From an uncultured Solibacteraceae bacterium (GTDB taxonomy: Bacteria > Acidobacteriota > Terriglobia > Bryobacterales > Bryobacteraceae): a DNA stretch of 64,000 nt. The stretch spans positions 17,347-81,346 of the forward strand of contig CAZGUX010000128.1 of the NCBI GenBank assembly GCA_964529305.1, read 5' to 3'. This document shows positions 10,381-32,887 of the stretch, piece after piece (the stretch's first letter is position 1; each line of letters starts with the position of its first letter). Position numbers and translations under genes: made by a program. Below the pieces are notes generated by a model that was given only the letters and a program-made list of their open reading frames with translations, ran no database searches and was not told the DNA's origin.

Positions 10381-12939
10381 CTACGGCACGACCCTCACCA
10401 CGACGTATCCAACCTTGCTCAGCACTTGCGGGATGCGCTGCACCAGGAGCCGGTCTTTGTTCCTGGTTTCCTGGGAGAGTTCCTTCCAGGGACGCAGGTC
10501 CTTGTGTACCTTGCGCGTCTTATCGGTGTCTTTTGCCCATTCCCATCCCGTATCGAGTTTCAGCGCCATCCACCGTTGGTGTTCTAGTTCCGCGAGTTTG
10601 TCGGCTTCCCCAGGGGTCATTCGGGCTGCTGTCTCTCCTCCCCGGGCAGGGACCATCACGCACCCAATTGCGGCCAGTTTCCTCGACATATCTCGAACGT
10701 TGGCCCGATTCTGCTCCTTCTCGTGTTCGGGAAGTTGCGCGTAGGGTCTCAATGAGCTGTGCGTTCTGGCCTCTTCTCTCGTTTCCGCTCCCCACTGGTA
10801 ACCCTGAGCCTTCAGTTCCTCGCAAAAGACCTCGTGAACCGATTCCGCAAGCCGTTCGACGACCTCGGAAGTCAGTTCCAGTTGTTGGACGAGCGCCTGG
10901 AATTCGACAGGGTTGACGTGAATGCTCATTTGCGGAACGTGGGGAAGACAGGACCGTTCAAAGCGCCGTTTGCCGGCAAGGCTGCTCATGGCGATGATCG
11001 ATTCCATGGAGCGGACGCCGTGCCTGTACTCGCCGATTTGCAGCAATGCCCGAAGCACTCCGTCGTCGATCTGCAAGCCCTGACGGGCTTCGAACAGGTG
11101 GCCGGCGTCGCGGCGGAGGAGGGTGTGCAACAGAATGGCGCGGCGGATCGCCGAATACGGATCAGCGCCTGGCGCCTGAGGATTGGGGCCCATCACATTG
11201 ATGTATCCCTTGAGCCGGCTGACGAAGTCCGGCCCCTTGGCCTGTTGGAACAAGCGCGTTCTGTCGGCGTCGTCTGAATGGCAGAACTCGGCCATGGTCT
11301 TGCTGATTCCGCCGGCGAACACAAAGATCGAGCGGCCAATCGGGTGCGAGAGTTCGCCTTCCTGGAAAAGACCATCCTGCATCGGGGCCAGGAAGTGTCG
11401 CAGCCATTCCGGGCGATTGTCCCTGTCGATCATGTCGAATTCGTCCCAGAACACAAGCGGAAGCTTACCCGAGAGGCCGATGTCGCGCACGCGGTGGAAG
11501 GCATGCACCAAATCCTCGGGGGAGCGGAACAGTGTGAGGTTGAAGGTAATGTCTTGAATCTCTCCGGGCAGGAGAGCCTTGGCGAGCTCCTTCACGCCAA
11601 ATGACTTGCCGGAGCCAGGAGGGCCAAAGACAGCAATCGAGAGCGGGCGCGCCAGCTTTTGGCTCACGTACTCGGCGACCAAGGCCCGAATGCCGCGGTA
11701 GCTCTCGATCTCCTGGCGATCCACGGCGAGCAGTTTTCCAAACTGCCCCACCGGGATGTCGGCAAGAACGGCTTCCGGCCCTAGGCGTACGATCGTCTCG
11801 GCAATGGGACCGAGGCCGCCGGCATGACGGTCGTGCAGGATGGTCCACAACCTGGAATTGCCGGCGAAACCGGGTGCCGGGACAGATGAGCGAGCGAATC
11901 GATGAGCCGGCCGCTCGATTTCAGAGACGATCCGTGCGGTAGGAAAGCGAAGATCCGCGGCCGAGGCGTTGGTTCCGGGATGGCCGTAGCCCTCGAGATG
12001 CAGTGCGCGCATTGCGGACAGACCGGCCTGAACGGCAAGGGCCATGTCCGCGTTGGCCGGATCTCGCGCCAGTTCCCTGACGATGGCGGCCGTGAGGCAG
12101 GTAGAGTATCCGATCATGCCGCCCTGGTGCAGGGCGAGCCACATCCCCTCGACTTCCCTGGGGGCAAAGACCAGTTCGAACGCGGGCGCCGAACGATCCT
12201 CGCCCGGCTTCCTGGTACTCAGGAATGCGCCCGCGGCGGGGAACGAGGTCACTGTGAAGGCGCACGACGACAGGGCATTGAGCTGAGGATTGAAGGTCAT
12301 CTCCCAAGCCAAGTCCTGGGCGGTGCGCTCCCAGGAGATCTCGCGGCTAATATGAACATTGGTCAGGCGCAGATCGTTGGCGGCCACGACGACAATCAAA
12401 CGTTCGCGATACCGTTCGACCAGGTGGTCGAACAGCGGCCCGCGGGCGATGGGGGCGCTCATCTTGAGCACAATCCACCGCGGCGGCGCGCCTTCCCCGA
12501 GGGGCCACGAAGAAGGGTCGCTGCGAAATCCCAGGTCCGCATCGTCGAGGACCACGATGTCCGGGTTCCCAGCGGGGTCCAGCTTCGGAGCCACCCGTGT
12601 GCCCGGGCGCCTGCCGCCGACACCCAGGAATTCCTTCACCCGCCAGGCGGGCTTGACATCTTTCTTCTCTGCGGGGAACAACGACCACAACGCATACGAT
12701 TCGGGAAGAGCGTGATCGGTCAAAGACGTGGCAAGGTCCGGCACGGTGGGTTGGGTGACCTGGAGTTCCAACTGGCTGCCGGCGCCGGCAGCTTCGATCA
12801 GCGCGGCCGACAGCGCTGCACCTCCTAGCTGTGAGTACGCGCAAGAGCAGGCCCGGCCCCCCGACAGATCTCCGGAGGATTGCGCGATGTGGCAGTCCAC
12901 GGTCAGGTCGCCGGCGACGAGCACTCGGGTTGAGGCCAT
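10381..12939 (-). CDS. Large multidomain AAA+ ATPase with an N-terminal Rossmann-like domain and two tandem C-terminal RyR domains.
   Basis: 852 aa with Walker A (GPPGSGKS) and Walker B (LVFWDEFD). The N-terminal ~400 aa show weak ribokinase/PfkB-like features (VLVAGDLTVD, DIVVLDD, LIVVVAANDLR). The C-terminus has two RyR-like repeats (EVFCEELKAQGYQWG..RPYAQLPEHEKEQNR and QRWMALKLDTGWEWA..RPWKELSQETRNKDR). It is transcribed divergently from the SLOG-SLATT gene across a 56-bp gap. Confidence 0.6.
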   Translation of the reverse strand: MASTRVLVAGDLTVDCHIAQSSGDLSGGRACSCAYSQLGGAALSAALIEAAGAGSQLELQVTQPTVPDLATSLTDHALPESYALWSLFPAEKKDVKPAWRVKEFLGVGGRRPGTRVAPKLDPAGNPDIVVLDDADLGFRSDPSSWPLGEGAPPRWIVLKMSAPIARGPLFDHLVERYRERLIVVVAANDLRLTNVHISREISWERTAQDLAWEMTFNPQLNALSSCAFTVTSFPAAGAFLSTRKPGEDRSAPAFELVFAPREVEGMWLALHQGGMIGYSTCLTAAIVRELARDPANADMALAVQAGLSAMRALHLEGYGHPGTNASAADLRFPTARIVSEIERPAHRFARSSVPAPGFAGNSRLWTILHDRHAGGLGPIAETIVRLGPEAVLADIPVGQFGKLLAVDRQEIESYRGIRALVAEYVSQKLARPLSIAVFGPPGSGKSFGVKELAKALLPGEIQDITFNLTLFRSPEDLVHAFHRVRDIGLSGKLPLVFWDEFDMIDRDNRPEWLRHFLAPMQDGLFQEGELSHPIGRSIFVFAGGISKTMAEFCHSDDADRTRLFQQAKGPDFVSRLKGYINVMGPNPQAPGADPYSAIRRAILLHTLLRRDAGHLFEARQGLQIDDGVLRALLQIGEYRHGVRSMESIIAMSSLAGKRRFERSCLPHVPQMSIHVNPVEFQALVQQLELTSEVVERLAESVHEVFCEELKAQGYQWGAETREEARTHSSLRPYAQLPEHEKEQNRANVRDMSRKLAAIGCVMVPARGGETAARMTPGEADKLAELEHQRWMALKLDTGWEWAKDTDKTRKVHKDLRPWKELSQETRNKDRLLVQRIPQVLSKVGYVVVRVVP

Positions 12940-12995
12940 GTCTCGACTATAAGCGATTGCATCGGATCGAGACGCATGGATATGCTCTCGTTGGT

Positions 12996-14699
12996 ATGGC
13001 CAGCGTTGACGACAGACCGCGGTTGGCGTTCCGGGTGGGAGTGACGGGGAAACGGAACCTGACCGAGCTCGACATGGATGCGATCCGGCCTCGCATTCGT
13101 GAGCTTCTCGCCGTCGTCAAAGGCGCCATGGAGGGCGAGGCAGCACGGTCGCACGGGGTCTATTCGGACGAGCCTCCGCTGTTGCGGGCGGTTTCTCCCC
13201 TGGCCGAGGGCGCGGACAGGGTTTTCGCCGAAGAAGCCCTCGTGCTTGGGTACACGCTGGAGGCCCCGCTGCCGTTCCATAGGGTCGAATACGCCGAGGA
13301 TTTTTCTGATTCAGCCAGCCGCGCAGCATTCGACGGGTTGATCGCCCAAGCCGCCGGCGTATTTGAACTGGATGGCCGGCGGGAATCCGAATCGGAACCG
13401 TACGAGACCGTGGGACGGGTGGTGCTGGATCACTGTGATCTTCTGATGGTCGTCTGGGATGGCAAACCCGCCGGCGGGAAAGGGGGGACCGCCCAGATCC
13501 TGGAGATGGCGCGGCAAAGGCAGATTCCCGTCGTTTGTATCGGTATCGCAGGACTTGCGGACAGGTTTTACTGGGCGGGAATGGAAGACGATCGTATGAC
13601 CCTCTCCGCCGAGGCACTTCATTTGGCCGTCGCACGCCTGGTTCGCCCCCCCTGGCTGTCCGGAATCAATCCCGATGACGCCGACATGAGCGGGTCGTAT
13701 GTGGGATCCGCCAGCGGGAAACCAGCGGTTCTTGGCGTGATCTGGTCCTGGTTCGTGAAAGGGATGTTGGTGGGCGTAGAAGTGGAGCCCACCAGAAAAG
13801 AGCAGATTCCGGACAACGGCTTCACCCCCCCGTATAAACTTTTCGACTCCATCACCAACCGCTTCGCGGGACTCTATCGGGGAGCGTTCCTGGCGAATTA
13901 CAGCCTGGGACTGGCGGCCGTCTGGTTCGCTCTCCTCGGATATGCCCATGAAGGCTACGGAAAACTGTGGCTGTGGAGCGAACTGGCGGCAATTGCGATC
14001 ATCCTGCTGCTGATCTTTCTGCTGGGCCGAAGGCGGTGGCACTTTCGCAGCATCGATTGCCGCTATCTGACGGAGCATTACCGGATCCTGTGCTTCATTT
14101 ATCCTCTCGGGCTGACGGCGCCACCCTTGAGGCTTCCGGCGCACCATCTTCACAGCGACGTACAACGGAGCTGGATGGAATGGCGGCTGCGCGCAAGCTT
14201 GCGCCAGGAGCCGATGCCTGCCGGGACGGTGAATGCGGCCGAGGTCCAGGGCCACTGTGCGCGGATTGTGGGTGAATGGATTGACGGCCAGATTACGTAC
14301 CACCAGCGAAATGAGGTTGGCCTGGAGCGTATCGAGAAGCGGCTCGACGGGTTGGTGTGGTGTTGCGTCAGCGCCGCGGCCGTCGCCTGCGTGCTCCACT
14401 TCTTCGTGCATGACCCAGCGGTTGCGCCGTGGCTGACGCTATGTGCCGCCGGATTTCCGGCCGCGGCCGCGGCGTGCCACGCGATCGCCACGCAAGGCGA
14501 GTTCCGGCGGTTGTCGGAGCGGTCAGGGGCCATGCACAACAGCCTCCGTGGGATCAGGACTCGCATCCAGCAACTCAACAGCTCTGGACAATTGACACTT
14601 GCCACCCTAAGGCGTGAGTGCGAGACTCTGGCCGCGCTGATGATCGAAGAGGTGGTGGATTGGCAGATCCTGTACAGGAAGCCGGTACCGCCGGGATAG
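12996..14699 (+). CDS. SLOG (SMF/DprA-LOG-like nucleotide sensor) domain fused to two C-terminal SLATT (DUF4231-like 2TM) modules. It is a predicted ligand-gated membrane effector.
   Basis: The N-terminal Rossmann-like domain carries DprA/LOG-type motifs (RVGVTGKRNL, SPLAEGADRVFAEEALVLGYTLEAPLPF, LLMVVWDGKPAGGKGGTAQILEMARQRQIPVVCIG). The C-terminal half has two copies of a 2TM module (LANYSLGLAAVWFALLGYA/LWLWSELAAIAIILLLIFLLG, then VWCCVSAAAVACVLHFFV/WLTLCAAGFPAAAAACHAIA). Each copy has the flanking aromatic/amphipathic helices typical of SLATT. I chose ATG 12996 because the longer ORF from 12831 would overlap the divergent AAA+ gene. Confidence 0.7.
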   Translation: MASVDDRPRLAFRVGVTGKRNLTELDMDAIRPRIRELLAVVKGAMEGEAARSHGVYSDEPPLLRAVSPLAEGADRVFAEEALVLGYTLEAPLPFHRVEYAEDFSDSASRAAFDGLIAQAAGVFELDGRRESESEPYETVGRVVLDHCDLLMVVWDGKPAGGKGGTAQILEMARQRQIPVVCIGIAGLADRFYWAGMEDDRMTLSAEALHLAVARLVRPPWLSGINPDDADMSGSYVGSASGKPAVLGVIWSWFVKGMLVGVEVEPTRKEQIPDNGFTPPYKLFDSITNRFAGLYRGAFLANYSLGLAAVWFALLGYAHEGYGKLWLWSELAAIAIILLLIFLLGRRRWHFRSIDCRYLTEHYRILCFIYPLGLTAPPLRLPAHHLHSDVQRSWMEWRLRASLRQEPMPAGTVNAAEVQGHCARIVGEWIDGQITYHQRNEVGLERIEKRLDGLVWCCVSAAAVACVLHFFVHDPAVAPWLTLCAAGFPAAAAACHAIATQGEFRRLSERSGAMHNSLRGIRTRIQQLNSSGQLTLATLRRECETLAALMIEEVVDWQILYRKPVPPG

Positions 14700-14868
14700 C
14701 GACCGGGAACCGGGCTGGAGGTGCCCGGCAGTCCGGCACGTGCGAAGGGCAACCGCTCAATGGCCTGGTGTGCCGGTCGAATTGCCCGGCAAGTCGAGCG
14801 CATGATACGTTGGGCTTCCGGCAACGAGGCGATTCTCGCGGAGCGGACCTCTTGCGTCCGGGAATGCG

Positions 14869-16107
14869 GTGACTACAAAAGGTGGATCTGGCGGGTGGCT
14901 GAAGCAAGTCGCCCGAAGACTGAACTGGCACAAGGCCGAGCGGAAGTCTTGCGCGAAGTGTGGTTCAAGCAGCGACGCCGAAGCGCGCCTCTGCTCCGCT
15001 TGTGGAGCACGGTTCCCCCACCAGGATGCGCGCTACGACGGGTTCATCAGCTACCGGCGCGACGGCGGCAGTCACGTCGCCAGTCTGCTGCAGTTGCTGC
15101 TCGAACGCGACCATGAGAAGCGGTTTTATCTCGACGTGGAGGAGTTGCAGGTTGGCCGCTTCGATGAGCAGTTGCTCGAGCGGATCCAATCGACTTCCAA
15201 CTTTGTCCTTGTTCTCACGGCACGATGTCTGGATCGCTGTACCGAAAAGCACGATTGGCTGAAACGCGAGATCCTTCATGCGATCACGACAGGGCGCAAC
15301 ATCATTCCCGTTCTCGTAGAGGACTTCCGTTTCCCGGGCGATGAAGTATTCAAGGACTTGCCGGATTCGATGCGGCTCCTCCCGAATCTCCAGGGAGTCC
15401 CTTACACGCACATTTACCGAGATGCCGCGGTCCGCAAGATCACGCAGTACCTGAGGGACGTCGCTCCGTTCGATGCTCTCGGGTCTGACCCAACCGCTAC
15501 CGGGCGCACGACCGGGGGAGGCTCCCAATCCGGACCTCCGCTCGATAACACTCCTGTGACCGCCGCGACCGCCGGAGCGATGCCCGCCTCGGTTGGAGGG
15601 AGCGACCCATCGCCGCGCAAGACGCCGAATCCGACTATCCAAGGCCGGAACCCGGACACCGTGCCACCCGAGTTCCCTGTTGAGCAAAGAACAATAGCGT
15701 CTCCCGCTACTCGATCGTCTTCGATTGACGTGGAGGGGGTTCCCCCGCCCGCGGTACCGACGATGTTGACACCGGAAGCGGCGCGAGCCAGGGTCCGGGC
15801 GGATTCGTGGCTGCTGCAAGTTCAGTCTGATCTTGCGTCCATCGATCACTCGGAGCACGAACCGAGTCTTGGAGCCGCGCGCATCTCGGGCCTCCGTACC
15901 GTGTCTGATCACGATGCTTCAGGCGCCGAGCCGCGATTCGGGTACGCCACGATTGCCCGCTCGTCCGTGAAAGACATCGGCGGGGCCCCAGAGCCCCGGT
16001 TCGGATTCGCTTCAGTCCAGCGTCGAGATGCTTTACGCGTGGCCGAGACGCCCAATGATCCGAGGTTCGGTTCGCTCTGCGTTCACCTGCTCAGCGACCA
16101 GAAGTGA
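14869..16107 (+). CDS. Zinc-ribbon + TIR domain protein (predicted NAD+-consuming signal-generating enzyme) with a disordered C-terminal tail carrying (E/D)PRFG repeats.
   Basis: An N-terminal CxxC..CxxC ribbon (CAKCGSS..CSACGARF) is followed by a canonical TIR core (YDGFISYRRDGGSHVASLL..FYLDVEELQVGRFDEQL..NFVLVLTARCL..HDWLKREILHAI..NIIPVLVEDF). The conserved catalytic-Glu position is retained (WLKRE). The C-terminal ~200 aa are low-complexity with three EPRFG/DPRFG repeats. The start is a GTG. Confidence 0.8.
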   Translation: MTTKGGSGGWLKQVARRLNWHKAERKSCAKCGSSSDAEARLCSACGARFPHQDARYDGFISYRRDGGSHVASLLQLLLERDHEKRFYLDVEELQVGRFDEQLLERIQSTSNFVLVLTARCLDRCTEKHDWLKREILHAITTGRNIIPVLVEDFRFPGDEVFKDLPDSMRLLPNLQGVPYTHIYRDAAVRKITQYLRDVAPFDALGSDPTATGRTTGGGSQSGPPLDNTPVTAATAGAMPASVGGSDPSPRKTPNPTIQGRNPDTVPPEFPVEQRTIASPATRSSSIDVEGVPPPAVPTMLTPEAARARVRADSWLLQVQSDLASIDHSEHEPSLGAARISGLRTVSDHDASGAEPRFGYATIARSSVKDIGGAPEPRFGFASVQRRDALRVAETPNDPRFGSLCVHLLSDQK

Positions 16108-16111
16108 AACC

Positions 16112-17368
16112 ATGTTCAAGATCCAAACGATTCCATTCGAATGCCCGAAACGCAGCAAGGTCGGCTATGAGCTATCGATCGAGCTCATCGATTTTTCCGC
16201 GGACGCTCACGAGGTGTTCATCGTGGGACCTGATGGGCAGGGGGTCCCCCACCGGATCAGTGATGGTTGCGTGCGGATCGAGCACCGCGATGGGCCAGGT
16301 GTCGCGCGTTTTCAGGCGGTGGTCCGTAATAAGCCCGAGGTACTTGAAGAGGGGGGCGGTTCTCGCGTTCCGGTTCTGAAGCCCAGTGAAGCCAGAGACG
16401 TGCTCACGATTGAGGTTTTGGTGCTCCCTGAGACGGAACCATCTATCCGGGATGCCGTGGAGGCGATCGTTTCGTCAATGAGTATTGGTATCAAAGGTGG
16501 ATCGATGACCGTCACGGCTCCCGATCTCGGAGTGGAGGGATTCCGGCTTCAAAAATCCTTTGGGGAGGCGGCCCCGGCCGAAGTGCTTCGCAGGCTTGCG
16601 CTCGACCGGGGCGACGCAACCAGTGTCCTCCGTTGCCTGTATCTGCTGTTCGACCTGGCGGGCCGGTTCCCCCTTGTTCCGTGGCTGGCGCCGTCGATCT
16701 TCGCCGTCCTGGGTGATCTGGTCGGAAGCCTGTCCAGTTCCTTCATGTTGAAGCAAGTTCTGGATGCGTTCGAGCGCATCGCTTTGGCGCCGAAGGATCA
16801 GTGGCTTTATCTCATTCGAACACTTCAGGAGCAGCAACTCGAACGCAGTCGGACCATTGGACTGCTCCGGCGAGTGACGCCGAGGGAATACCGACTCCAG
16901 ACCGCCGCCATCGTTCTGGAAGTCTGCGGTGTAGTCGCGGACGGCAGAGGCGAAGCGTGTAATCTCTTCAACGACTTCTCGTATCGCCAAGCTGCCGAAG
17001 AGGTTCTGGAGTGGATGGAGGTGGACCGTTATGTGATTTCGGAGGGGTGCCAGTTTCTGCGAGCCATCGATTACCGAAGTGCACTACCCAGACTACGGAC
17101 CCTGTTGGACCAACCTGGGGACCGGCCAGGAGACGAGGAGATCGTCAAATGCCTAGCGTCCTGGCAGGACCACCCCTCGATCGCGATGATGGTGAAGAAG
17201 ATCGCCGAAACCTCCGATTACACGGCCGGCAGCATGGTGAAACATCTCCTGCGAATTGGCGCCGAAGTCATCCCCGCGATCCAAGAGGTTCAACGAAAGT
17301 CCGGACCTGCCAAGGCCAAGTCCATAGCAGACTCCCTCGCTTCGCATGCTCCATCGGCGAAAGCCTGA
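16112..17368 (+). CDS. Hypothetical protein with C-terminal HEAT/ARM-like repeats, third gene of the TIR cassette.
   Basis: Its ATG lies 5 nt after the TIR stop (translational coupling). The 419-aa product has no recognisable catalytic motifs. The C-terminal region has HEAT-like repeats (IVKCLASWQDHPSIAMMVKKIAETSD.., MVKHLLRIGAEVIPAIQEV). Confidence 0.55.
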   Translation: MFKIQTIPFECPKRSKVGYELSIELIDFSADAHEVFIVGPDGQGVPHRISDGCVRIEHRDGPGVARFQAVVRNKPEVLEEGGGSRVPVLKPSEARDVLTIEVLVLPETEPSIRDAVEAIVSSMSIGIKGGSMTVTAPDLGVEGFRLQKSFGEAAPAEVLRRLALDRGDATSVLRCLYLLFDLAGRFPLVPWLAPSIFAVLGDLVGSLSSSFMLKQVLDAFERIALAPKDQWLYLIRTLQEQQLERSRTIGLLRRVTPREYRLQTAAIVLEVCGVVADGRGEACNLFNDFSYRQAAEEVLEWMEVDRYVISEGCQFLRAIDYRSALPRLRTLLDQPGDRPGDEEIVKCLASWQDHPSIAMMVKKIAETSDYTAGSMVKHLLRIGAEVIPAIQEVQRKSGPAKAKSIADSLASHAPSAKA

Positions 17369-24020: not shown

Positions 24021-25046
24021 TTGCGAGCTTCCACAGAGCCCGGGGTGTGGATCAGCCCAAGATGCCCGCTCGCCCTCCGCTATGAGGACGGGCTGTTTCG
24101 GCAAATTAACCAGGAAGTCACGGAGAGCTTTCTGGCCTTCCGCAAGGGTGGGCTGGAAACGGGCGGACTTCTGTTCGGACGGGTGGTCGGGGACGAGATC
24201 TCCCTGATCGCGCATCGGCCGATCGCGTGCGAGCACGCGCTGGGACCCGGCTTCGCACTCTCCGAAGGCGACCGGGAGCGTCTGGCGCAGTTGCTGCGCG
24301 AATGGCCGCGCGACCCCGCTCTGAACGGACTGGAATTGGTGGGCTGGTATCGGTCCCGCACTCGCGGCCCGCTCACACCGGCGCCGGACGACCTGTCCTT
24401 TCATCAGGAGTTCTTTCCACAACCGTGGCAATCGCTGCTGGTCTTGAAGCCAGACCTTGGTTTTCCGACGCGCGCAAAGGTCTTTTTTCCATCCGAAGAA
24501 GGAGTCCTCGATCCGGACGGCGGCTTTGACGACATCGAACTCGCTGCCGTGAAACCTCGTCCACGCGCGCAGGATGAAATTCCAATGATGATGCCGGAAG
24601 CCGCAGCCTCCGTGCCCGCCGCGATGCCGGTCGAGGATGACGGGGAGAATGGAGTGCCGGAGCACCGGAAGCACACGTCCCGTGTGTGGATGCTCTTCTC
24701 GTCCGTTGCCGCGGGACTGCTGGCGCTTTCGTTCTGGTGGCCGCCCACCCGCAAGCTGGGCCTCGAAATCACGGACCGGAAGGGACAGCTTCACATCCGG
24801 TGGGACCAAAGGTCCCACTGTGTTGTCGGAGCGCGCGGCGGGCGTCTCGAGATCAAAGACGGCGCTTCGCGCGTCACCTCCGAATTCGACTCCGCCGGCC
24901 TCCGCGACAGCAGCGTCTACTATGTGCGGCGATCCGGAGAGGTCGAAGTCCTGCTCGTGGTCGAGACCAGCCAGGGCGCGGTCGGAGAGCGTATGAGGCT
25001 CGCCGGACCGGGGCCTGCCCGCCAAGTCCTCTTTGACTCTCGTTAA
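24021..25046 (+). CDS. Membrane protein with an N-terminal catalytically dead MPN/JAB-like domain, one TM helix and a C-terminal beta-rich domain.
   Basis: The MPN-like fold signature is present (ETGGLLFGRVVGDEISLIAH..LELVGWYRSRTRG..APDDLSFHQEFF..LLVLKPD), but the JAMM His/Ser/Asp ligands are replaced (HSHP becomes RSRT). A TM helix (WMLFSSVAAGLLALSFWW) follows, then a beta-rich domain. It lies immediately upstream of cas10. Confidence 0.5.
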   Translation: MRASTEPGVWISPRCPLALRYEDGLFRQINQEVTESFLAFRKGGLETGGLLFGRVVGDEISLIAHRPIACEHALGPGFALSEGDRERLAQLLREWPRDPALNGLELVGWYRSRTRGPLTPAPDDLSFHQEFFPQPWQSLLVLKPDLGFPTRAKVFFPSEEGVLDPDGGFDDIELAAVKPRPRAQDEIPMMMPEAAASVPAAMPVEDDGENGVPEHRKHTSRVWMLFSSVAAGLLALSFWWPPTRKLGLEITDRKGQLHIRWDQRSHCVVGARGGRLEIKDGASRVTSEFDSAGLRDSSVYYVRRSGEVEVLLVVETSQGAVGERMRLAGPGPARQVLFDSR

Positions 25047-25085
25047 ATGCAGTTGCTAGACTATTGACTTCTCAAGCCGCTAGGC

Positions 25086-26546
25086 ATGTCCGAACAGATT
25101 CTCCTGAAAGGTAAGTTGCTGGGCATCGAGGAGTTCTTAACTTCTCCGCACAGCCGTCAGGGCGCATGGAGCGACGAAGGCGTCGTCATCGGGCGCGCGC
25201 AGTGGATCACCCTCCTCAGCGAGGTGTTGCCCCGGGCGTTGCTCGCCGAGTTGGGCCTGGCGCGCATTCTGCTGGGGTCGAGCGGGGGCGGGCAGTTCCT
25301 GGTGGTGCTGCCGGACGCGTCCGTCGATGCCGCAAATCAATTTCTACGCGCCGCGGCCGCCGGCATCGCGCACCTCAGCGGAGGGCATATCGAGTTGGTG
25401 TGGGCGTCCACGGAGAATCTCGGCGACTGGACCGTGGTCCGAAAGCGGCTCAACGATCAACTGCACCGCTGGACGGGAACCCCGGTGACGAATGCGCAGC
25501 CGGAGTTTTTTCAGCCGTTTGTCGAGCCCGAGCGGGAGGACACTTCCTCCTATTTTGCCGAGACCCTGGGGACCCGCATCCGCGAGGCCGCGTCGGTCGG
25601 CTGGTCGCCCGACGCCCCCGGCCGCATTTGCGCCAACGAAGGCAAGCACACCTGGCGGCTCACGCCGAACATCTCGAGCGATGGCATTACCGTGTCGCGG
25701 CACGCCGCGCCGGGCGACGACGCGGGGTCGGCCGCCGATGCCCGAACCCTGGCCACTCGCGCGACCGGGCGGCCGCTGTGGGGTGTGTTGCGCGGCGACG
25801 TCGATGATTTCGAGTTCCGCCTCCGCCGGGTCCAAAGCATTGAGGAGTACGTGCCGCTGTCGGTGCTCTACAAGCAGTTTTTCGCCGGGGAGCTGGAAGT
25901 GCTCTGCTCCCTACCGGAGTTCTGGCGGAGCGTCACCATCCTCTATTCGGGCGGCGACGACTTCGCGGTGTACGGAGCATGGGACTCGCTGGTGGCTCTG
26001 GCGCGCGAGATGCAGCGGCTGTTCCACCGCTTTACGGAAGAGAACCTGAAAGAGTTCCCCGGAGCCGAAGGCAAGACCATCTCGATGGCGATCGCCGTGG
26101 CCGAACCCGAAGAAACTTCGCTGGCCGCGGTCTATCAGGAGGCCGGGCGGCTGCTGTCCCGAGCCAAGGCCGCCGACAAAGACTGCATCTATCTGCTGGG
26201 CCGCGTCCTCGAGTGGAAGCAACTCGCCGACGCGGCCGAACTCAAAGACGCGATTACGCGCATGATTTCCGACCGCCGCGCCTCCCGGCATGTTGTGCCG
26301 GAGTTGCTCAGCCTGTACGGAAAGATCGCTGCGGCGGGATCGGGACCGGCCGACACCGCCGTGGAACGCGTCTGGCGCTTTCAGCGCCGCCTCCATGTGA
26401 TTCTGGGAGGAGGCAGGGAAAAGGAATTTCAGAAGCTGCGTACGCATCTCTCCGGCGAACTCGCCGGACGGAAGTCCACTCATGTGAAACTCCGTCCGTC
26501 GGGTCTGGTCGCGCTCGAGTGGGCGCGGCTGACCGTGGGCGAATAG
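25086..26546 (+). CDS. cas10: Compact Cas10/Csm1-like cyclase subunit with two palm domains and an intact GGDD motif, but no HD nuclease domain and no zinc finger.
   Basis: 486 aa. Palm1 is degenerate (ILLGSSGGGQFLVVLPD). Palm2 is canonical Cas10 (ILYSGGDDFAVYGAWDSLVALAREMQRLF..GKTISMAIAVAEPEETSLAAVYQEAGRLLSRAKAADKDCIYLLGRVLEWKQL). It is followed by csm2-csm3-csm4-csm5 in type III-A order. There is no H..HD motif and no 4-Cys treble clef. Confidence 0.75.
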   Translation: MSEQILLKGKLLGIEEFLTSPHSRQGAWSDEGVVIGRAQWITLLSEVLPRALLAELGLARILLGSSGGGQFLVVLPDASVDAANQFLRAAAAGIAHLSGGHIELVWASTENLGDWTVVRKRLNDQLHRWTGTPVTNAQPEFFQPFVEPEREDTSSYFAETLGTRIREAASVGWSPDAPGRICANEGKHTWRLTPNISSDGITVSRHAAPGDDAGSAADARTLATRATGRPLWGVLRGDVDDFEFRLRRVQSIEEYVPLSVLYKQFFAGELEVLCSLPEFWRSVTILYSGGDDFAVYGAWDSLVALAREMQRLFHRFTEENLKEFPGAEGKTISMAIAVAEPEETSLAAVYQEAGRLLSRAKAADKDCIYLLGRVLEWKQLADAAELKDAITRMISDRRASRHVVPELLSLYGKIAAAGSGPADTAVERVWRFQRRLHVILGGGREKEFQKLRTHLSGELAGRKSTHVKLRPSGLVALEWARLTVGE

Positions 26547-26567
26547 GCGACGACCGAGTGAATCTCT

Positions 26568-27050
26568 ATGGCTGACCAGCAAAGACCACCAAGGCCTCCC
26601 CGTGAGGGGCGGGAGCCGCGCGAGCAGTTCGGGCCGGGCGGAGGCAACCGGGACCGGGATCGCGACCGGGATCGGGATCGCGACCGGCGGGACCGGCGTC
26701 CGGAAGGTCCTCCGGAAATCGACCTCGAGAAGCTGATCGCCGATAGCCTGTATCTGGACAATCAGGCCCACGGCGTCGTCAGCCGCATGCGCGATATGGA
26801 TTCGGGCACCAAGAGCCAGTTGCGGCGGCTCTACAATGCCGTCCGGCGCGCCTGCCGCGCTCCGGAATCCGAACGCCAGCATCAGTTCGTGATGCTGCGC
26901 GCGCGGCTGGCGTATACCATCGCACGTCACTCCCTGCGCAGTCTGGATCAATTGGAAAAGCTGCTGCTTCAGGTGACGCGCAAGAACGATCCGCGCGGTT
27001 ACGAACGCTTCAAGGATTTGTTTGAAGCCATCGTCGCCTATAACGAATAG
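26568..27050 (+). CDS. csm2: Csm2 (Cas11 small subunit) with an N-terminal Arg/Asp dipeptide-repeat extension.
   Basis: The alpha-helical core matches Csm2 family motifs (TKSQLRRLYNAVRR, LRARLAYTIARHS, FKDLFEAIVAY). The first ~45 aa are low-complexity, ending in RDRDRDRDRDRDRRDRR. Confidence 0.8.
   Translation: MADQQRPPRPPREGREPREQFGPGGGNRDRDRDRDRDRDRRDRRPEGPPEIDLEKLIADSLYLDNQAHGVVSRMRDMDSGTKSQLRRLYNAVRRACRAPESERQHQFVMLRARLAYTIARHSLRSLDQLEKLLLQVTRKNDPRGYERFKDLFEAIVAYNE
26640..26700 (+). repeat. Tandem GAC/CGG/GAT/CGC hexanucleotide-type coding repeat that produces the (RD)n tract of Csm2.
   Basis: gaccgggatcgcgaccgggatcgggatcgcgaccggcgggaccggcg lies in-frame within csm2. Confidence 0.7.
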
Positions 27051-27107
27051 GCGCCGTGCCAGGCGAGGCTCTCGAGAGCCCGCCACTGTGAGTAACGAGG
27101 AATTTCC

Positions 27108-27941
27108 ATGAGCGCGCATACGACGCAAACCCAGCTCAAACTGGTTGGCAAACTGATTATCGAAGGGGAACTGCACTGCGAGACCGGCCTGCATGTCGGC
27201 GCGGGCAAGGGCTCTCTGGAGATCGGGGGGTCGGACAATCCCGTCATCAAGGACGCCTTTGGGCGGCCCTACGTCCCCGGCAGTTCGCTGCGAGGGAAAC
27301 TCCGGAGCCTGATCGAGCACGCTCACGGCCTCACCTCCCCCGCCGATCTGGTGTACCTTTCCAAGCGCAAGGGCCAGGAGGTGCGCATCCACCAGAGCGA
27401 CAAGCCCGACGACGAAGTGTGCATCCTGTTCGGCCGCAATCCGGGCCGTATGGAGCGAGTCTCCGGCGATCCGGTAGAATCCAGCGCGGCCACGCCGGCG
27501 CGGCTGGCGGTGTATGACGCGCCGCTCGACCCCGACAGCATCACGCCCCAGATGCGCGAGAACCTGGACGACGAGTTGACCGAGGTGAAGAGCGAAAACG
27601 CGATCGACCGGATCACGTCGCAGGCCAATCCGCGCACTTTGGAGCGCGTGCCGGCCGGGGCGCGGTTCATCGTGCGCATGGTGTTGGACGTCCTGTGCGA
27701 GGAGGACGCGCCGCTGGTGGCGCGGGTGCTGGAAGGCATGCGCCTGCTCGAGGACGACGCGCTGGGCGGAGGCGGGTCTCGCGGCAGCGGCCGCGTCCGT
27801 TTCGCCAACCTGCGCGTGGTCTGGCGCGGCCGAGGCTACTACGCGGGAGAAGGCCAGGACAAAGAACTGATTGCAGGCGCCGACGTGGCAGCGGTCCAGG
27901 CGCTGTTCCGCGACGCCGGCCCCTCGTACATCCAGGAATGA
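27108..27941 (+). CDS. csm3: Csm3 (Cas7-family RAMP backbone subunit and target RNase).
   Basis: RAMP G-rich loop and Csm3 N-terminal signature (GLHVGAGKGSLEIGGSDNPVIKDAFGRPYVPGSSLRGKLRSLIE), including the catalytic Asp position (DNPVIKD). Confidence 0.9.
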   Translation: MSAHTTQTQLKLVGKLIIEGELHCETGLHVGAGKGSLEIGGSDNPVIKDAFGRPYVPGSSLRGKLRSLIEHAHGLTSPADLVYLSKRKGQEVRIHQSDKPDDEVCILFGRNPGRMERVSGDPVESSAATPARLAVYDAPLDPDSITPQMRENLDDELTEVKSENAIDRITSQANPRTLERVPAGARFIVRMVLDVLCEEDAPLVARVLEGMRLLEDDALGGGGSRGSGRVRFANLRVVWRGRGYYAGEGQDKELIAGADVAAVQALFRDAGPSYIQE

Positions 27942-28975
27942 CCCCAGCCGCTGTCGTCAAATTCCGCCCGACCACGCCGTGGCGCCTCGGCGACGATTCC
28001 GGCCTGCGCGACCGCGTGCAGTTGTTCTATCGCAGCGATGCGCTGTACTCCGCGGTCACGCATGCCATGAGCGCGTTCGGGAGGCTCGACGACTGGCTGG
28101 CCGCCACCGCCCGGGCTTCCGTTCCCGAGGTAGCGTTCAGTTCCGTGTTTCCCATGCAGGGCGACCTGGTGTTCGTGCCCCCGCCCCGCACCATCTGGCC
28201 TCCGGCTCTTTCTCCCAAGGTGCGATGGAAAGGGGCTAGTTTCGTTCCTCTCGACGTCATCGACGCGTTGTTGTCCGGGGACTCCCTCGACGAGACCGTG
28301 TGGGCGGTCGACGGCGCCAGCGAGTGCCTGATTCCGGTGGGCCGCTACGGCCCGTTTCGCATCGCCAATCGCACCGCGGCGGCGGTGGACCGGTTGACCG
28401 GGGCGCTGGACGCCCACCGCGCCGCCTGCCTGGAGTTCGCGGCCGGCGCCGGTATGTGGTGCGTGGTCTCCTTTGCGTCCGAAGAGTCGAGCGCGCGTTG
28501 GCTGGGCCCCGTGCAAACAGCTTTCCGCTACCTGGCCGACACCGGATTGGGCGGAGAGCGTTCCCGCGGTTGGGGACGCTTCGACAACCTGGAGTTCCTG
28601 GAGGGCGACTTGTCCGCTCTCCTTCTGCCTCGCTCCACCCAGGCCTCCGAACCGGCGGCGCCTTCCGTGGAACGCCTGTTTTGGCTGTTATCGTTGTTTG
28701 TTCCCTCGGCCGGCGACGTAGTGCGTTGGGACGGCGGCAGCTATCAGGTGGTGGCGCGGGCGGGGCGTGTCGATTCCGCGGTGTCGTCGGGTGGCCTCAA
28801 GAAATTGCAGAACATGGTGACCGAGGGCTCGGTGCTGGCGGCGGGCGCGCCGTTGATCGGCAGCGCGCCCAACGTCGCTCCGGATGACTTCCCTCATCCC
28901 GTCTATCGCTGCGGCTTTGCGGTGGCCGTGCCGCTTCCGGCCCCGCCTGCTGCCGCTCCCCAGGTGGTGTCATGA
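27938..28975 (+). CDS. csm4: Csm4 (Cas5-family RAMP).
   Basis: Its internal ATG overlaps the csm3 stop (ATGA). The RAMP glycine-rich loop GLGGERSRGWGRF is present. The gene sits in the csm4 position of the operon. Confidence 0.8.
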   Translation: MTPAAVVKFRPTTPWRLGDDSGLRDRVQLFYRSDALYSAVTHAMSAFGRLDDWLAATARASVPEVAFSSVFPMQGDLVFVPPPRTIWPPALSPKVRWKGASFVPLDVIDALLSGDSLDETVWAVDGASECLIPVGRYGPFRIANRTAAAVDRLTGALDAHRAACLEFAAGAGMWCVVSFASEESSARWLGPVQTAFRYLADTGLGGERSRGWGRFDNLEFLEGDLSALLLPRSTQASEPAAPSVERLFWLLSLFVPSAGDVVRWDGGSYQVVARAGRVDSAVSSGGLKKLQNMVTEGSVLAAGAPLIGSAPNVAPDDFPHPVYRCGFAVAVPLPAPPAAAPQVVS

Positions 28976-30075
28976 GATACCGGGTCACCGCGCTCACTCC
29001 TCTGCTGGTGGGTGACGGCCACCGCCTGTCGCCTATCGACTACATGGTGTGGAAGGATCACGTCAACGTCCTGGACCAGACCCGCATCTTCAAGCTGCTG
29101 GCCAAGGGACCGCGGCTCGAAGGGTATTTGACCCAGCTCAAGAGGGCCGACAAACTCGACTTTGCGTCGTGGGGTGGCTTCGCGCAGAACTTCGCCGACC
29201 GGAGAATCCCATTCGAGCATCCTTCGTGTTCGAAGTATTGGGACCGGGCAACGGGCGAATCGGTCCACATTCCGACCTTTTCGAGCGGCCTTCACGGCCC
29301 GTATCTGCCAGGCAGCGCGCTGAAAGGCGCGCTCCGCACGGGAGTGCTGTACGCCTCGGTCCGGGACGGTTCGCTGAAGCCGGTGCTGGAACGTTTCGAA
29401 GGAGACCGGCCGCCGCGCCATCCGGCTGAAGCGCTGGAAGACGACGTGCTCGGCCGGGCCGGCAACAGCCGCATGCGCTTCGTGCGCACGGGCGACTCCA
29501 AGCCCGTCGACCGGTCGATGATGAAGGTCTATCTGCTGCGGCTTTCGACCGTCGTTTCTCAGAAGGGCCCCGCCTGGACTCTTGGATGGAAACAAAGCCC
29601 ACGCGGCGCCGTCGACTCCCGCCGCGTGGAGGACTCCACGCCGTGGTTCGCGGAGATGGCCGCGCCGGGTTCCACGTTCGAGGGCGACTGGCAGGAACGC
29701 TCGTCCAATTCCCGCGCCAAGATTTTCCAAGGCGTCAACCAGTACGCGGCCGCGGTCCTGGCGATGCACCGGCAGTACGGGGAAGCCACCGGACTGACCG
29801 CGGTGGCAGAGGCGGCGGGCCGCCTGGCCGAACGAGTCGCGGGCCTTCCCTCGGAACAGGCGTGCCTGCTTCCCCTCGGATGGGGCGGCGGCCTCTTCAG
29901 CAAGACCGCCTGGGTGGAGAAGGACTCCGCGGACTACCGGGCGATTCTCGGCAAGCTCCCGTTCTACTCGCGGGCGGTCTCCTCGGGACTCCCGTTCCCC
30001 AAAACCCGCCGCATCGTTTTTGAGGGAGACCGGCCCTCCACCATCCCGGGCTGGGTTCTGTTGGAAGTCGCCTGA
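28972..30075 (+). CDS. csm5: Csm5 (Cas7-family RAMP).
   Basis: It overlaps the csm4 stop. The RAMP motif YLPGSALKGALRTGVLY and the G-rich segment LGWGGGLFSKT are present. It is the last gene of the Csm module. Confidence 0.8.
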   Translation: MRYRVTALTPLLVGDGHRLSPIDYMVWKDHVNVLDQTRIFKLLAKGPRLEGYLTQLKRADKLDFASWGGFAQNFADRRIPFEHPSCSKYWDRATGESVHIPTFSSGLHGPYLPGSALKGALRTGVLYASVRDGSLKPVLERFEGDRPPRHPAEALEDDVLGRAGNSRMRFVRTGDSKPVDRSMMKVYLLRLSTVVSQKGPAWTLGWKQSPRGAVDSRRVEDSTPWFAEMAAPGSTFEGDWQERSSNSRAKIFQGVNQYAAAVLAMHRQYGEATGLTAVAEAAGRLAERVAGLPSEQACLLPLGWGGGLFSKTAWVEKDSADYRAILGKLPFYSRAVSSGLPFPKTRRIVFEGDRPSTIPGWVLLEVA

Positions 30076-30108
30076 CGGCGGCCGGGCAGGCTGGGCGACC
30101 AGGCCACG

Positions 30109-31320
30109 ATGAGCACCGAGCGGCAGCACACTGCGTCAGTCCTGATTGTCGACGACGACTTTCTCGCCCTCGAGTCGCTGCGGGTCCTGTTCACCCTGGA
30201 AACCGACTACAAGCTGACCTGTGTCAATCACCCCGATCGGGCCCTGGAAGAGTTCGCCCGGCAGCCTCTCGATGTGGTCATCTCCGACTACCTGATGCCG
30301 CAGATGAACGGGTTGGAACTGCTGAGGGAACTCCGCCGCCTGCAGCCCGAATCCACGCGCATTCTGCTGACCGGCTTCGCCGATAAGGAGAATGTCATCC
30401 GGGCGGTAAATGAAGTCGGCCTGTACCAATATCTGGAGAAACCCTGGGACAACGACGCGCTGCTGCTGTCGGTGCGAAACGCCATTCGCGAACGCAGCCT
30501 TCGAGTTCAGGTTGCCGGCAAGGTCCGGGAACTGGACGACCTGCTGCGGGAGCACAAGCAACTCTCCCAGCGGCACAGCGACCTCGAGCGGGAGATTGAA
30601 ATGGCCTCCCGTGTCCAGCGGAGCCTTCTTCCGTCCCACCCTTTGACGATTCCGGGGATTCGGGTGGAAACGGTGTACCGTCCCTGCCGCTCCCTGGGCG
30701 GGGATTTCTTCGACTTCACGCAGGACGGAGCGCGCGCCGGGATCCTGGTGGCTGACGTCAGCGGCCACGGGGCGCAGGCGGCGCTCACCAGCATGCTGCT
30801 GAAGGCCGGGTTTCACGAGGCATTTGCACGGACGGATGCGCCGGACGAGATCCTGGCCCGGATGAACGAGATGCTGCACCGGTTCCTGCCCTCGGCGATG
30901 TACGTCGCCGCCACGGTGCTGTTGTTCGATTCCCCGCTTCGGATTCGCGCCGCCAACGGCGGGCTGCCCTACCCGTTTGTCGTGCGGAAGTCGAAGGGCC
31001 GTGTTGATCAGGCGCCGCTACAGGGGTTTCCGCTCGGGCTGTTCCCCGACGCCGGACCTCAGCCCTGGGACGTTCACTCCATCGCGCTTGACGTGAACGA
31101 TGTCTTGCTGATCGCCTCCGACGGGTTGGGGGAAATTCGCAACGCGGCCGGCGAGTATTTCCAGGATGGGCCCCTGATCACCCGTCTCGCCGAGTGGACG
31201 GCGGCCCCGGACGCGGACCTTCTGGAGACGCTGCTGACCCACGCGTTGGGATTCGCCGGCGAGCAGGCTCCGGCGGACGACATTACGCTGGTGGCGATCG
31301 GCCACTCCGAAGACGACTGA
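30109..31320 (+). CDS. Response regulator with a receiver domain fused to a PP2C-type (SpoIIE/RsbU-like) serine phosphatase.
   Basis: N-terminal REC domain (VLIVDDDFLAL..DVVISDYLMPQMNGLEL..ILLTGFAD). C-terminal PP2C/SpoIIE domain (GGDFFDF..ADVSGHGAQAAL..LLIASDGLGE..DDITLVAI). It starts 33 nt after the csm5 stop. Confidence 0.85.
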   Translation: MSTERQHTASVLIVDDDFLALESLRVLFTLETDYKLTCVNHPDRALEEFARQPLDVVISDYLMPQMNGLELLRELRRLQPESTRILLTGFADKENVIRAVNEVGLYQYLEKPWDNDALLLSVRNAIRERSLRVQVAGKVRELDDLLREHKQLSQRHSDLEREIEMASRVQRSLLPSHPLTIPGIRVETVYRPCRSLGGDFFDFTQDGARAGILVADVSGHGAQAALTSMLLKAGFHEAFARTDAPDEILARMNEMLHRFLPSAMYVAATVLLFDSPLRIRAANGGLPYPFVVRKSKGRVDQAPLQGFPLGLFPDAGPQPWDVHSIALDVNDVLLIASDGLGEIRNAAGEYFQDGPLITRLAEWTAAPDADLLETLLTHALGFAGEQAPADDITLVAIGHSEDD

Positions 31321-32815: not shown

Positions 32816-32887
32816 TGCGGATAGCGGGAGTCGAACCCGCGGCCGACAGCTTTGAGGCTGTTGCTCTATCCACTGAGCTATATCCAG
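32816..32887 (-). tRNA. Atypical tRNA with canonical D- and T-arms but a 6-nt anticodon loop (CUCAAA). It resembles tRNA-Trp(CCA) missing one C, and may be a pseudo-tRNA or a sequencing indel.
   Basis: Reverse complement reads CTGGATA-TA-GCTC-AGTGGATA-GAGC-A-ACAGC-CTCAAA-GCTGT-CGGCC-GCGGG-TTCGACT-CCCGC-TATCCGC-A. The D-arm and T-arm (GGTTCGACTCC) are textbook and the acceptor stem pairs except 1:72. The anticodon loop has 6 nt, not 7, and CCA is not encoded. Coordinates are good to ±2 nt. Confidence 0.55.

Follow-up and report, generated by a model that had tools for sequence, protein, structure and literature searches.

A stretch of 64,000 nucleotides from an uncultured Solibacteraceae bacterium (contig CAZGUX010000128.1 of assembly GCA_964529305.1; the whole stretch is referred to here as the window) carries at positions 25086-30075 the cassette cas10-csm2-csm3-csm4-csm5. 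To judge from its sequence, this is one compact, complete and expressed-looking operon of a Csm-type effector derived from type III-A. Its Cas10 is a miniature of only 486 amino acids (aa), and the window contains no CRISPR array, no cas6, no adaptation genes and no CARF or SAVED effector to go with it. On balance the cassette is probably a vertically inherited type III-A derivative whose products would form an RNA-containing Csm complex with a Cas10 that usually signals, the guide and the receptor being encoded elsewhere, and this complex is likely to be independent of CRISPR arrays. Type III CRISPR systems are generally regarded as mobile and fast-evolving immune modules that are fed by arrays. 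In the family described here no effector subunit is missing and both catalytic centres on the RNA side are present, but its behaviour is that of a core operon in the chromosomes of an abundant soil order.

A Csm-type effector with a miniature Cas10

The identity of the five genes, all located on the forward strand and assigned in a preliminary description of this DNA, was confirmed by three profile libraries. Cas10 (csm1, 25086-26546) is matched by Pfam Cas10-Cmr2_palm2 (PF22335, 1.6e-18), by PADLOC Cas10 (3e-24) and by the Csm1 model TIGR02578 (2.6e-45), the latter over model positions 490-731 only and with 155 bits, which is below the trusted cut-off of 170. Csm2, the Cas11 small subunit (26568-27050, 160 aa), matches PF03750 (1.5e-11) and TIGR01870 (2.5e-11), Csm3, the Cas7 backbone RNase (27108-27941, 277 aa), matches TIGR02582 (1.8e-60), the Cas5-like Csm4 (27938-28975, 345 aa) matches TIGR01903 (1.5e-32) and the Cas7-like cap subunit Csm5 (28972-30075, 367 aa) matches TIGR01899 (5.1e-16), all of them over the cut-off; Csm4 and Csm5 are also matched by Pfam Csm4_C (6.4e-10) and PADLOC Csm5 (2.6e-20), respectively. 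The subunits expected of type III-A, a Csm2-type Cas11 and the RAMP subunits Csm3, Csm4 and Csm5, lie within one operon, and the expected catalytic residues are in place, namely GGDD at residues 289-292 of Cas10 and Asp43 (D43) in the catalytic position of Csm3. The aspartate, which had already been recognised as kept, lies in the motif GGSDNPV, and Csm3 aligns to PDB 4qts_C (1.4e-43) with the IGG(S/T)DNPV motif in register.

The mini-Cas10 is composed of Palm1, a shortened linker, Palm2 with GGDD and a C-terminal helical domain (D4), and its Palm/cyclase fold is recovered by profiles, by sequence matches to PDB entries and by Foldseek. Alignment to solved Csm1 begins at Palm1, where residues 11-80 correspond to 273-338 of 8wfx (GSSGGGQF versus YSGGGHAY), and resumes at Palm2. 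The cyclase motifs of Palm2, SGGDDF (288-293), GAWD (297-300) and SMAIAV (333-338), are canonical and present as first reported. The GSSGGGQF motif of Palm1 (64-71) is likewise present but is not degenerate as had been thought, SGGG being normal in canonical Csm1 (8wfx: YSGGGHAYLLLP). Alignments to canonical Csm1 and Cas10 also bear out the lack of an HD domain and of a treble-clef zinc finger: next to its closest canonical counterparts of 740-800 aa, the protein is missing the HD domain in its entirety together with the CxxC...CxxC zinc finger, its inter-palm region is about 100 aa shorter, and it starts at Palm1 whereas its canonical relatives have about 270 extra N-terminal residues. An AlphaFold2 (AF2) model of the protein (pLDDT 63.7, pTM 0.65) retrieves type III-A Csm1 structures as the top Foldseek matches (E ~1e-13, TMq 0.6-0.7), among them 6xn7_A (E 6e-14, TMq 0.68).

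Homologue searches returned more than 2,500 clusters of 473-513 aa with a common MSEQILL N-terminus. In an exhaustive search of representatives, the full-length members of the clade measure 450-530 aa down to 38% identity, and the next matches are canonical Cas10s of 740-800 aa at ~32% identity in the C-terminal half only. Because of this break in length and identity between the two groups, the mini-Cas10 is on sequence grounds a discrete clade. Truncation of cas10 by an assembly error, which would have undone the preliminary description, does not apply, since the clusters of similar length share their N-terminus and a conserved promoter lies directly upstream; the assignment of 25086-26546 to Cas10 is in turn supported by hidden Markov model, structure and PDB searches. 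An exact-sequence look-up found no record identical to the window Cas10 or to the representative P0001, and JGI labels many members of the clade simply 'CRISPR-associated protein Csm1'. The claim that this Cas10 is among the most reduced has to be qualified, as more reduced ones are on record, including the III-I Cas10 without an N-terminal cyclase domain (PMC12669027). HD-less Cas10 proteins are common, a recognisable HD domain being found in only 39% of Cas10 and in ~65% of those of type III-A, for which it is not obligatory (PMC11229360).

All five genes are under strong purifying selection. The ratio of non-synonymous to synonymous substitution rates (dN/dS) is 0.04-0.06 (cas10, 0.05) in comparison with the closest relative in the scan of GTDB species, the Bryobacteraceae metagenome-assembled genome (MAG) L004 with 95% identity, and 0.06-0.21 in comparison with L005. 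The LEIGG[SA]DNPV motif of Csm3 aligns to the catalytic region of solved Csm3 and its aspartate is invariant (115/115). All 80 genome loci and the majority of the metagenome loci have an intact GGDD in Cas10; in scattered lineages it is degenerate, as GGND, GEDD, GTGN, GGQD, SNDG, GLGE or GIEG, the last four variants being carried by P-numbered representatives, which are sequences without genomic context. Three loci that have lost GGDD (L149, L151 and L158) retain the rest of the cassette intact; two more (L155 and L140) are fragmentary. Since some lineages have lost GGDD but keep Csm3 intact, the sequences suggest that RNA targeting rather than signalling is the indispensable activity.

Csm2 is the most conserved subunit of the cassette, its core of ~116 aa retaining 80-95% identity throughout the family, also in members whose Cas10 is down to 32-34% (L084, L085, L097 and others). 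The corresponding values are 66-96% for Csm3 and, in more distant relatives, 38-60% for Csm4 and Csm5. Cas11 is usually the least conserved subunit in canonical type III systems. The conserved helical core of Csm2 is preceded by a low-complexity, Arg/Asp-rich N-terminal tail (RDRDRD, 26568-26730) in which Tandem Repeats Finder (TRF) detects an 18-nucleotide (nt) repeat (26647-26687). The Csm4 of relatives is extended at its C-terminus by Pro/Glu/Ala-rich tandem repeats, the length of which varies widely and reaches ~900 nt (L071 13970-14861; L018 5568-5887). Low-complexity tails are unusual on Cas effector subunits.

With csm4 starting at the family-conserved ATG at 27938 (the mechanical open reading frame, ORF, begins at 27695), its start overlaps the csm3 stop as ATGA, and the same holds for the csm5 start and the csm4 stop. 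The overlapping stop and start codons described earlier are confined to these two junctions, cas10 and csm2 being separated by 21 nt and csm2 and csm3 by 57 nt. A sigma-70-type promoter-like site with an extended -10 (25033-25062, forward strand; TTGACT-18 nt-TAGACT with TG before the -10) is located 24 nt upstream of the cas10 ATG and is the sole match of a sigma-70-like scan within 24800-30400. In 76 related loci the DNA ahead of cas10 likewise has a conserved TGnTAnAnT element, along with a TTCTCAAGG motif, and the site is predicted to serve as the promoter. Most of these loci contain two copies of a TTCTCA(A/G) motif, one close to the -35 and the other, as TTCTCAAGG, within the short 5' untranslated region (window 25025-25085). 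This motif could be an operator, or merely -35 plus ribosome-binding site (RBS) context.

Distribution, neighbourhood and the missing components

A scan of one genome per GTDB species detected relatives of the mini-Cas10 in 467 species genomes, nearly all of them labelled Bryobacteraceae, Bryobacterales, Solibacteraceae or Terriglobia, and a metagenome scan seeded with a 4-sequence alignment of the most divergent members added more than 500 further stretches. Viral contigs yielded no mini-Cas10 cassette. All of 160 fetched loci have the order cas10-csm2-csm3-csm4-csm5, with junctions that are usually 3 nt or overlapping. In the window the cassette sits in DNA with a GC content of ~0.64 throughout, among ordinary chromosomal genes (FtsY, riboflavin synthesis, shikimate dehydrogenase, NrfA/NrfH, transporters, glycosyl transferases). 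In the favoured reading the cassette is a distinct lineage that was fixed in Bryobacterales chromosomes and is vertically inherited.

The surroundings of the cassette differ from lineage to lineage, and a few neighbours recur. Upstream, a divergently transcribed BON-domain gene is found in 43 loci and a PPIase gene in 33. Downstream, 19 loci of divergent lineages (L084-L152) have a gene resembling the XrtA/PEP-CTERM-associated ATPase 100-195 nt after csm5 (for example L085 15268-16179; TIGR03015 4e-88, under the trusted cut-off), with an extended -10 promoter of its own. Because this synteny is kept even in a locus whose Cas10 is only 34% identical to that of the window, the cassette appears to have been in long vertical residence. 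The arrangement of csm5 and the ATPase gene may be either ancient synteny or a functional link to exopolysaccharide and PEP-CTERM biology; the window has no copy of this ATPase beside csm5. As operon partners, the BON, PPIase and ATPase genes were rejected, each having its own orientation or promoter, and they look like lineage synteny, although they may have a functional link to the cassette. The upstream ORF 24021-25046 (no Pfam, NCBIfam or PADLOC match) and the downstream gene 30109-31320 were also dismissed as partners, both being common only to the 95%-identical L004. The latter, 34 nt downstream of csm5 on the same strand, encodes a response-regulator receiver fused to a SpoIIE/PP2C phosphatase and is probably not part of the Csm system. 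Two loci with discordant labels, L043 (Ca. Limnocylindrales) and L062 (Verrucomicrobiia), have the same upstream BON gene as Bryobacterales loci, and L043 the PPIase gene as well; the labels are probably binning or labelling errors and not signs of horizontal transfer.

The searches for missing components cover the 64-kb window and 10 kb around the 160 loci, while the evidence at genome level is the literature on one strain, Ellin6076, considered below. Repeat and tandem-repeat scans revealed no CRISPR array or direct-repeat family in the whole window, and PADLOC and Pfam scans of its other ORFs revealed no Cas6, Cas1, Cas2, CARF or SAVED protein, which extends the orphan status proposed in the preliminary description to the entire window. 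Not one of the 160 related loci has an array within 10 kb, none links the cassette to cas6, cas1/2 or CARF, and Cas, CARF and SAVED models have no match among 70 recurrent neighbour families. A complete type III-A locus is consequently not seen, as array and Cas6 are missing from the window and from the 160 neighbourhoods alike, and no ancillary effector (Csm6 or another CARF or SAVED protein) is encoded by the window ORFs or the recurrent families. The word 'orphan' holds for an unlinked module but not for a one-off, since the cassette is a member of a large discrete family.

Several repeats that resembled arrays were rejected. Apparent mini-arrays in L013, L018, L033, L071, L075 and others are coding tandem repeats of the Pro/Glu/Ala-rich Csm4 C-terminus, as seen by TRF and inspection, and the k-mer-flagged repeats at this site have periods that are multiples of 3. 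The repeats of L093, L144, L085 and L106 are perfect tandem repeats without spacers. In L093 (7908-8171) these are six perfect, spacerless copies of a 48-nt unit with a short hairpin, located just downstream of the PEP-CTERM-type ATPase gene (L093 6727-7620) and ~2 kb beyond the cassette; they are not a CRISPR array. Guide RNAs encoded in cis were sought with the same outcome: in most loci the genes of the cassette overlap or are 3 nt apart, the 200 nt before cas10 hold only the conserved promoter and an RBS-like motif, and the spacer between csm5 and the ATPase gene in the 19 loci holds an extended -10 promoter and is not conserved as RNA. Rfam and ARAGORN report a single tRNA-like gene in the window (32816-32887, reverse strand; Rfam tRNA 55 bits), to which ARAGORN assigns no anticodon (2-base 'ca'). 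Its acceptor stem looks imperfect on inspection, and it is located at a drop in GC (32-36 kb).

A TIR protein encoded ~9 kb upstream (14869-16107) was considered as a SAVED-TIR effector and discarded, as only its TIR part matches the SAVED-TIR model. It belongs to a region of lower GC (10381-17368, 0.59-0.63) which encodes an 852-aa RyR-domain protein (10381-12939, reverse strand), a 622-aa ORF without family (12831-14699), the zinc-ribbon/TIR-domain protein itself and a 446-aa ORF without family (16028-17368). Possibly these genes form a small defence islet that has nothing to do with the Csm cassette.

Probable array independence and competing explanations

The complete 9.9-Mb genome of Ca. 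Solibacter usitatus Ellin6076 was reported to be without CRISPRs and to have only three cas genes, Acid_0892, 0893 and 0895, which were read as left-overs (Challacombe et al. 2011, PMC3174227). A search seeded with the Cas10 of a 'Ca. Solibacter' MAG leads to UniRef100_Q02AM6 (Solibacter usitatus, 484 aa, 89% identical to the seed), and contigs encoding exactly Q02AM6 carry a BON gene on the reverse strand followed by Cas10, Csm2, Csm3, Csm4 and Csm5. By their locus numbers the three reported genes fit csm2, csm3 and csm5, cas10 and csm4 having been missed by older models. As Q02AM6 sits in the cassette and Ellin6076 was reported to be without CRISPRs, the cassette is maintained in a genome reported to be array-free. 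The preliminary description had left a choice between CRISPR RNAs (crRNAs) borrowed in trans and a non-canonical role; borrowing is weakened by the order-wide conservation of the cassette, by the absence of arrays within 10 kb of all 160 loci and by the reported CRISPR-free state of Ellin6076, and the non-canonical role is favoured.

Under the favoured reading, the five proteins would assemble in the manner of canonical Csm, with Cas10 and Csm4 at the base, Csm3 as the backbone, Csm2 as the minor filament and Csm5 as the cap. The RNA on which they assemble would have a source other than a local CRISPR array, and in some hosts at least this source is probably not a CRISPR array at all. Pairing with a complementary RNA would lead to Csm3-mediated RNA cleavage and, in most lineages, would also activate the Palm/GGDD cyclase of Cas10 to produce a nucleotide second messenger for a receptor encoded elsewhere. 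No DNase activity of Cas10 is expected because the HD domain is absent. Assembly, RNA guidance, RNA cleavage, cyclase activity and array independence are all predicted from the sequences, and the RNA-binding and RNA-cleaving core formed by Csm3 and Csm2 would be the most strongly selected part.

A more specific version of this reading, which is advanced tentatively, is that a III-A effector was domesticated in an ancestor of the Bryobacterales and works array-free on a germline-encoded non-CRISPR RNA or a fixed cellular RNA, in the surveillance or regulation of endogenous RNA and mostly with second-messenger signalling. In that case a fixed RNA duplex or a host partner would explain why the Cas11/Cas7 surface is nearly invariant.

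Some points weigh against array independence and a signalling output. The GGDD sequences imply that signalling cannot be the universal output, given its loss in some lineages, and the AF2 model of Cas10 is of moderate confidence only. It is possible that many hosts, including the organism of the window, have arrays and a cas6 at a distance from the cassette. The report of a CRISPR-free Ellin6076 goes back to an IMG-based scan of 2011 (PMC3174227), which would miss mini-arrays and solitary repeat units, and the use of other arrays in trans is well documented for III-B, III-C and III-F loci that have none of their own (PMC12669027).

These points lead to the rather unlikely alternative of a conventional, unlinked III-A module, which would use Cas6-processed crRNAs from arrays elsewhere in the genome and confer antiviral immunity through cyclic oligoadenylate and a distant CARF or SAVED effector. 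Such a module would account for the presence of all canonical effector subunits and catalytic motifs, many type III loci without an array of their own share crRNAs (PMC12669027), 133 loci have been recorded in which Cas10 is cyclase-only and no effector is known (PMC11229360), and the negative results reach the window and the neighbourhoods rather than whole host genomes. It is at odds, however, with the presence of the cassette in Ellin6076, with its absence from viral contigs, with the want of any link to cas6, cas1/2 or CARF in the 160 loci and with a near-universal, syntenic distribution in hundreds of species at a dN/dS of ~0.05 and a Cas11 core that is 80-95% identical. Horizontally shuffled defence modules usually lack such housekeeping-like conservation.

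Less probable still is an exapted Csm scaffold that acts without a guide in signalling or RNA processing, sensing a fixed feature of cellular or foreign RNA or a protein partner, with Cas10 either a regulated nucleotide cyclase or dispensable. Csm2 and Csm3 are extremely conserved in comparison with Cas10, Csm4 and Csm5, which would suit an invariant ligand, the cyclase motif has been lost here and there beside an intact Csm3, and no array lies near the cassette in the loci examined. On the other side, purifying selection has preserved the Cas5-like Csm4 and the Csm5 cap. In canonical complexes these two subunits hold the 5' and 3' ends of the guide, and to our knowledge all known Cas7-filament complexes nucleate on RNA. 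Finally, the missing array, adaptation genes, cas6 and HD domain might be taken for decay of a lost CRISPR-Cas locus, as in the interpretation of the Ellin6076 genes as left-overs by Challacombe et al. (PMC3174227), or cas10 might have been truncated in the assembly. The conservation data exclude both for practical purposes and leave them a very slight probability: the five ORFs are intact in ~160 loci with dN/dS of 0.04-0.06, the Csm3 aspartate (115/115), GGDD (80/80 genome loci), promoter and N-terminus are conserved, and thousands of homologues have the same length.

Relation to known systems

The family seems to be undescribed apart from the 2011 remark on 'left-over' cas genes in Ellin6076. 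The systematic type III survey of Hoikkala et al. excluded Cas10 proteins below 500 aa by design (PMC11229360) and missed the family because of this cut-off. The 2025 update of the classification (PMC12669027), by a term search of its main text, does not mention it, and literature searches on Acidobacteria or Bryobacter Cas10 and on Acid_089x found nothing on this variant beyond Challacombe 2011. If the cassette truly works array-free, it would be a natural case of repurposing of a class 1 effector, and would bear on CRISPR exaptation for host functions and on the minimal Cas10 architecture for target-activated signalling. An HD-less Cas10 of 486 aa with compact partners would also be of practical interest as a small signalling module.

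By content the cassette is type III-A, while as a locus it lacks the array, the Cas6 and the ancillary effector of that type. It shares with the canonical systems of S. epidermidis, S. thermophilus, L. lactis, T. onnurineus and M. canettii (PDB 6xn7, 6ifn, 6mur, 7v00, 8wfx) the gene order, the Palm1 (SGGG)/Palm2 (GGDD)/D4 fold, a Csm2-type Cas11 and the IGGxDNPV motif of Csm3. Unlike these systems, it has a Cas10 without HD domain and zinc finger and with a shorter inter-palm region, lacks cas6, csm6/CARF, cas1/2 and an array, is fixed in the chromosome and vertically inherited across an order, and has Cas11 as its most conserved subunit as well as low-complexity tails on Csm2 and Csm4.

Subtypes III-F, III-G and III-H combine a cyclase-inactivated Cas10 and an apparently active HD domain with non-conserved Cas7 aspartates, and are predicted to cleave DNA (PMC12669027). 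The cassette is their mirror image and does not belong with them, being in the opposite state in all three features: it has no HD domain, GGDD is mostly intact and the Cas7 aspartate is invariant. Most III-B, III-C, III-E and III-F loci are without arrays (PMC12669027), and the array-less III-B/Cmr modules resemble the cassette as effector-only loci without an array or cas6 of their own. Unlike the hosts of these trans users, which have arrays and Cas6 elsewhere, the Ellin6076 host is reported to be array-free, and the module is Csm-type and fixed in its lineage.

The comparison with type IV-B is one of functional analogy only. Type IV-B systems are array-less ribonucleoproteins of Cas7, Cas5 and Cas11 type which have been reported to form on non-CRISPR small RNAs and are mostly plasmid-borne. 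Both they and the Csm cassette are class 1 backbones without arrays, adaptation genes or an obvious nuclease partner, but the protein families are unrelated (Csf versus Csm/Cas10), and the Csm cassette is chromosomal and retains the cyclase. By this analogy, an effector domesticated in the Bryobacterales ancestor would be the type III counterpart of array-less type IV-B, but one that is chromosomal, order-wide and catalytically equipped.

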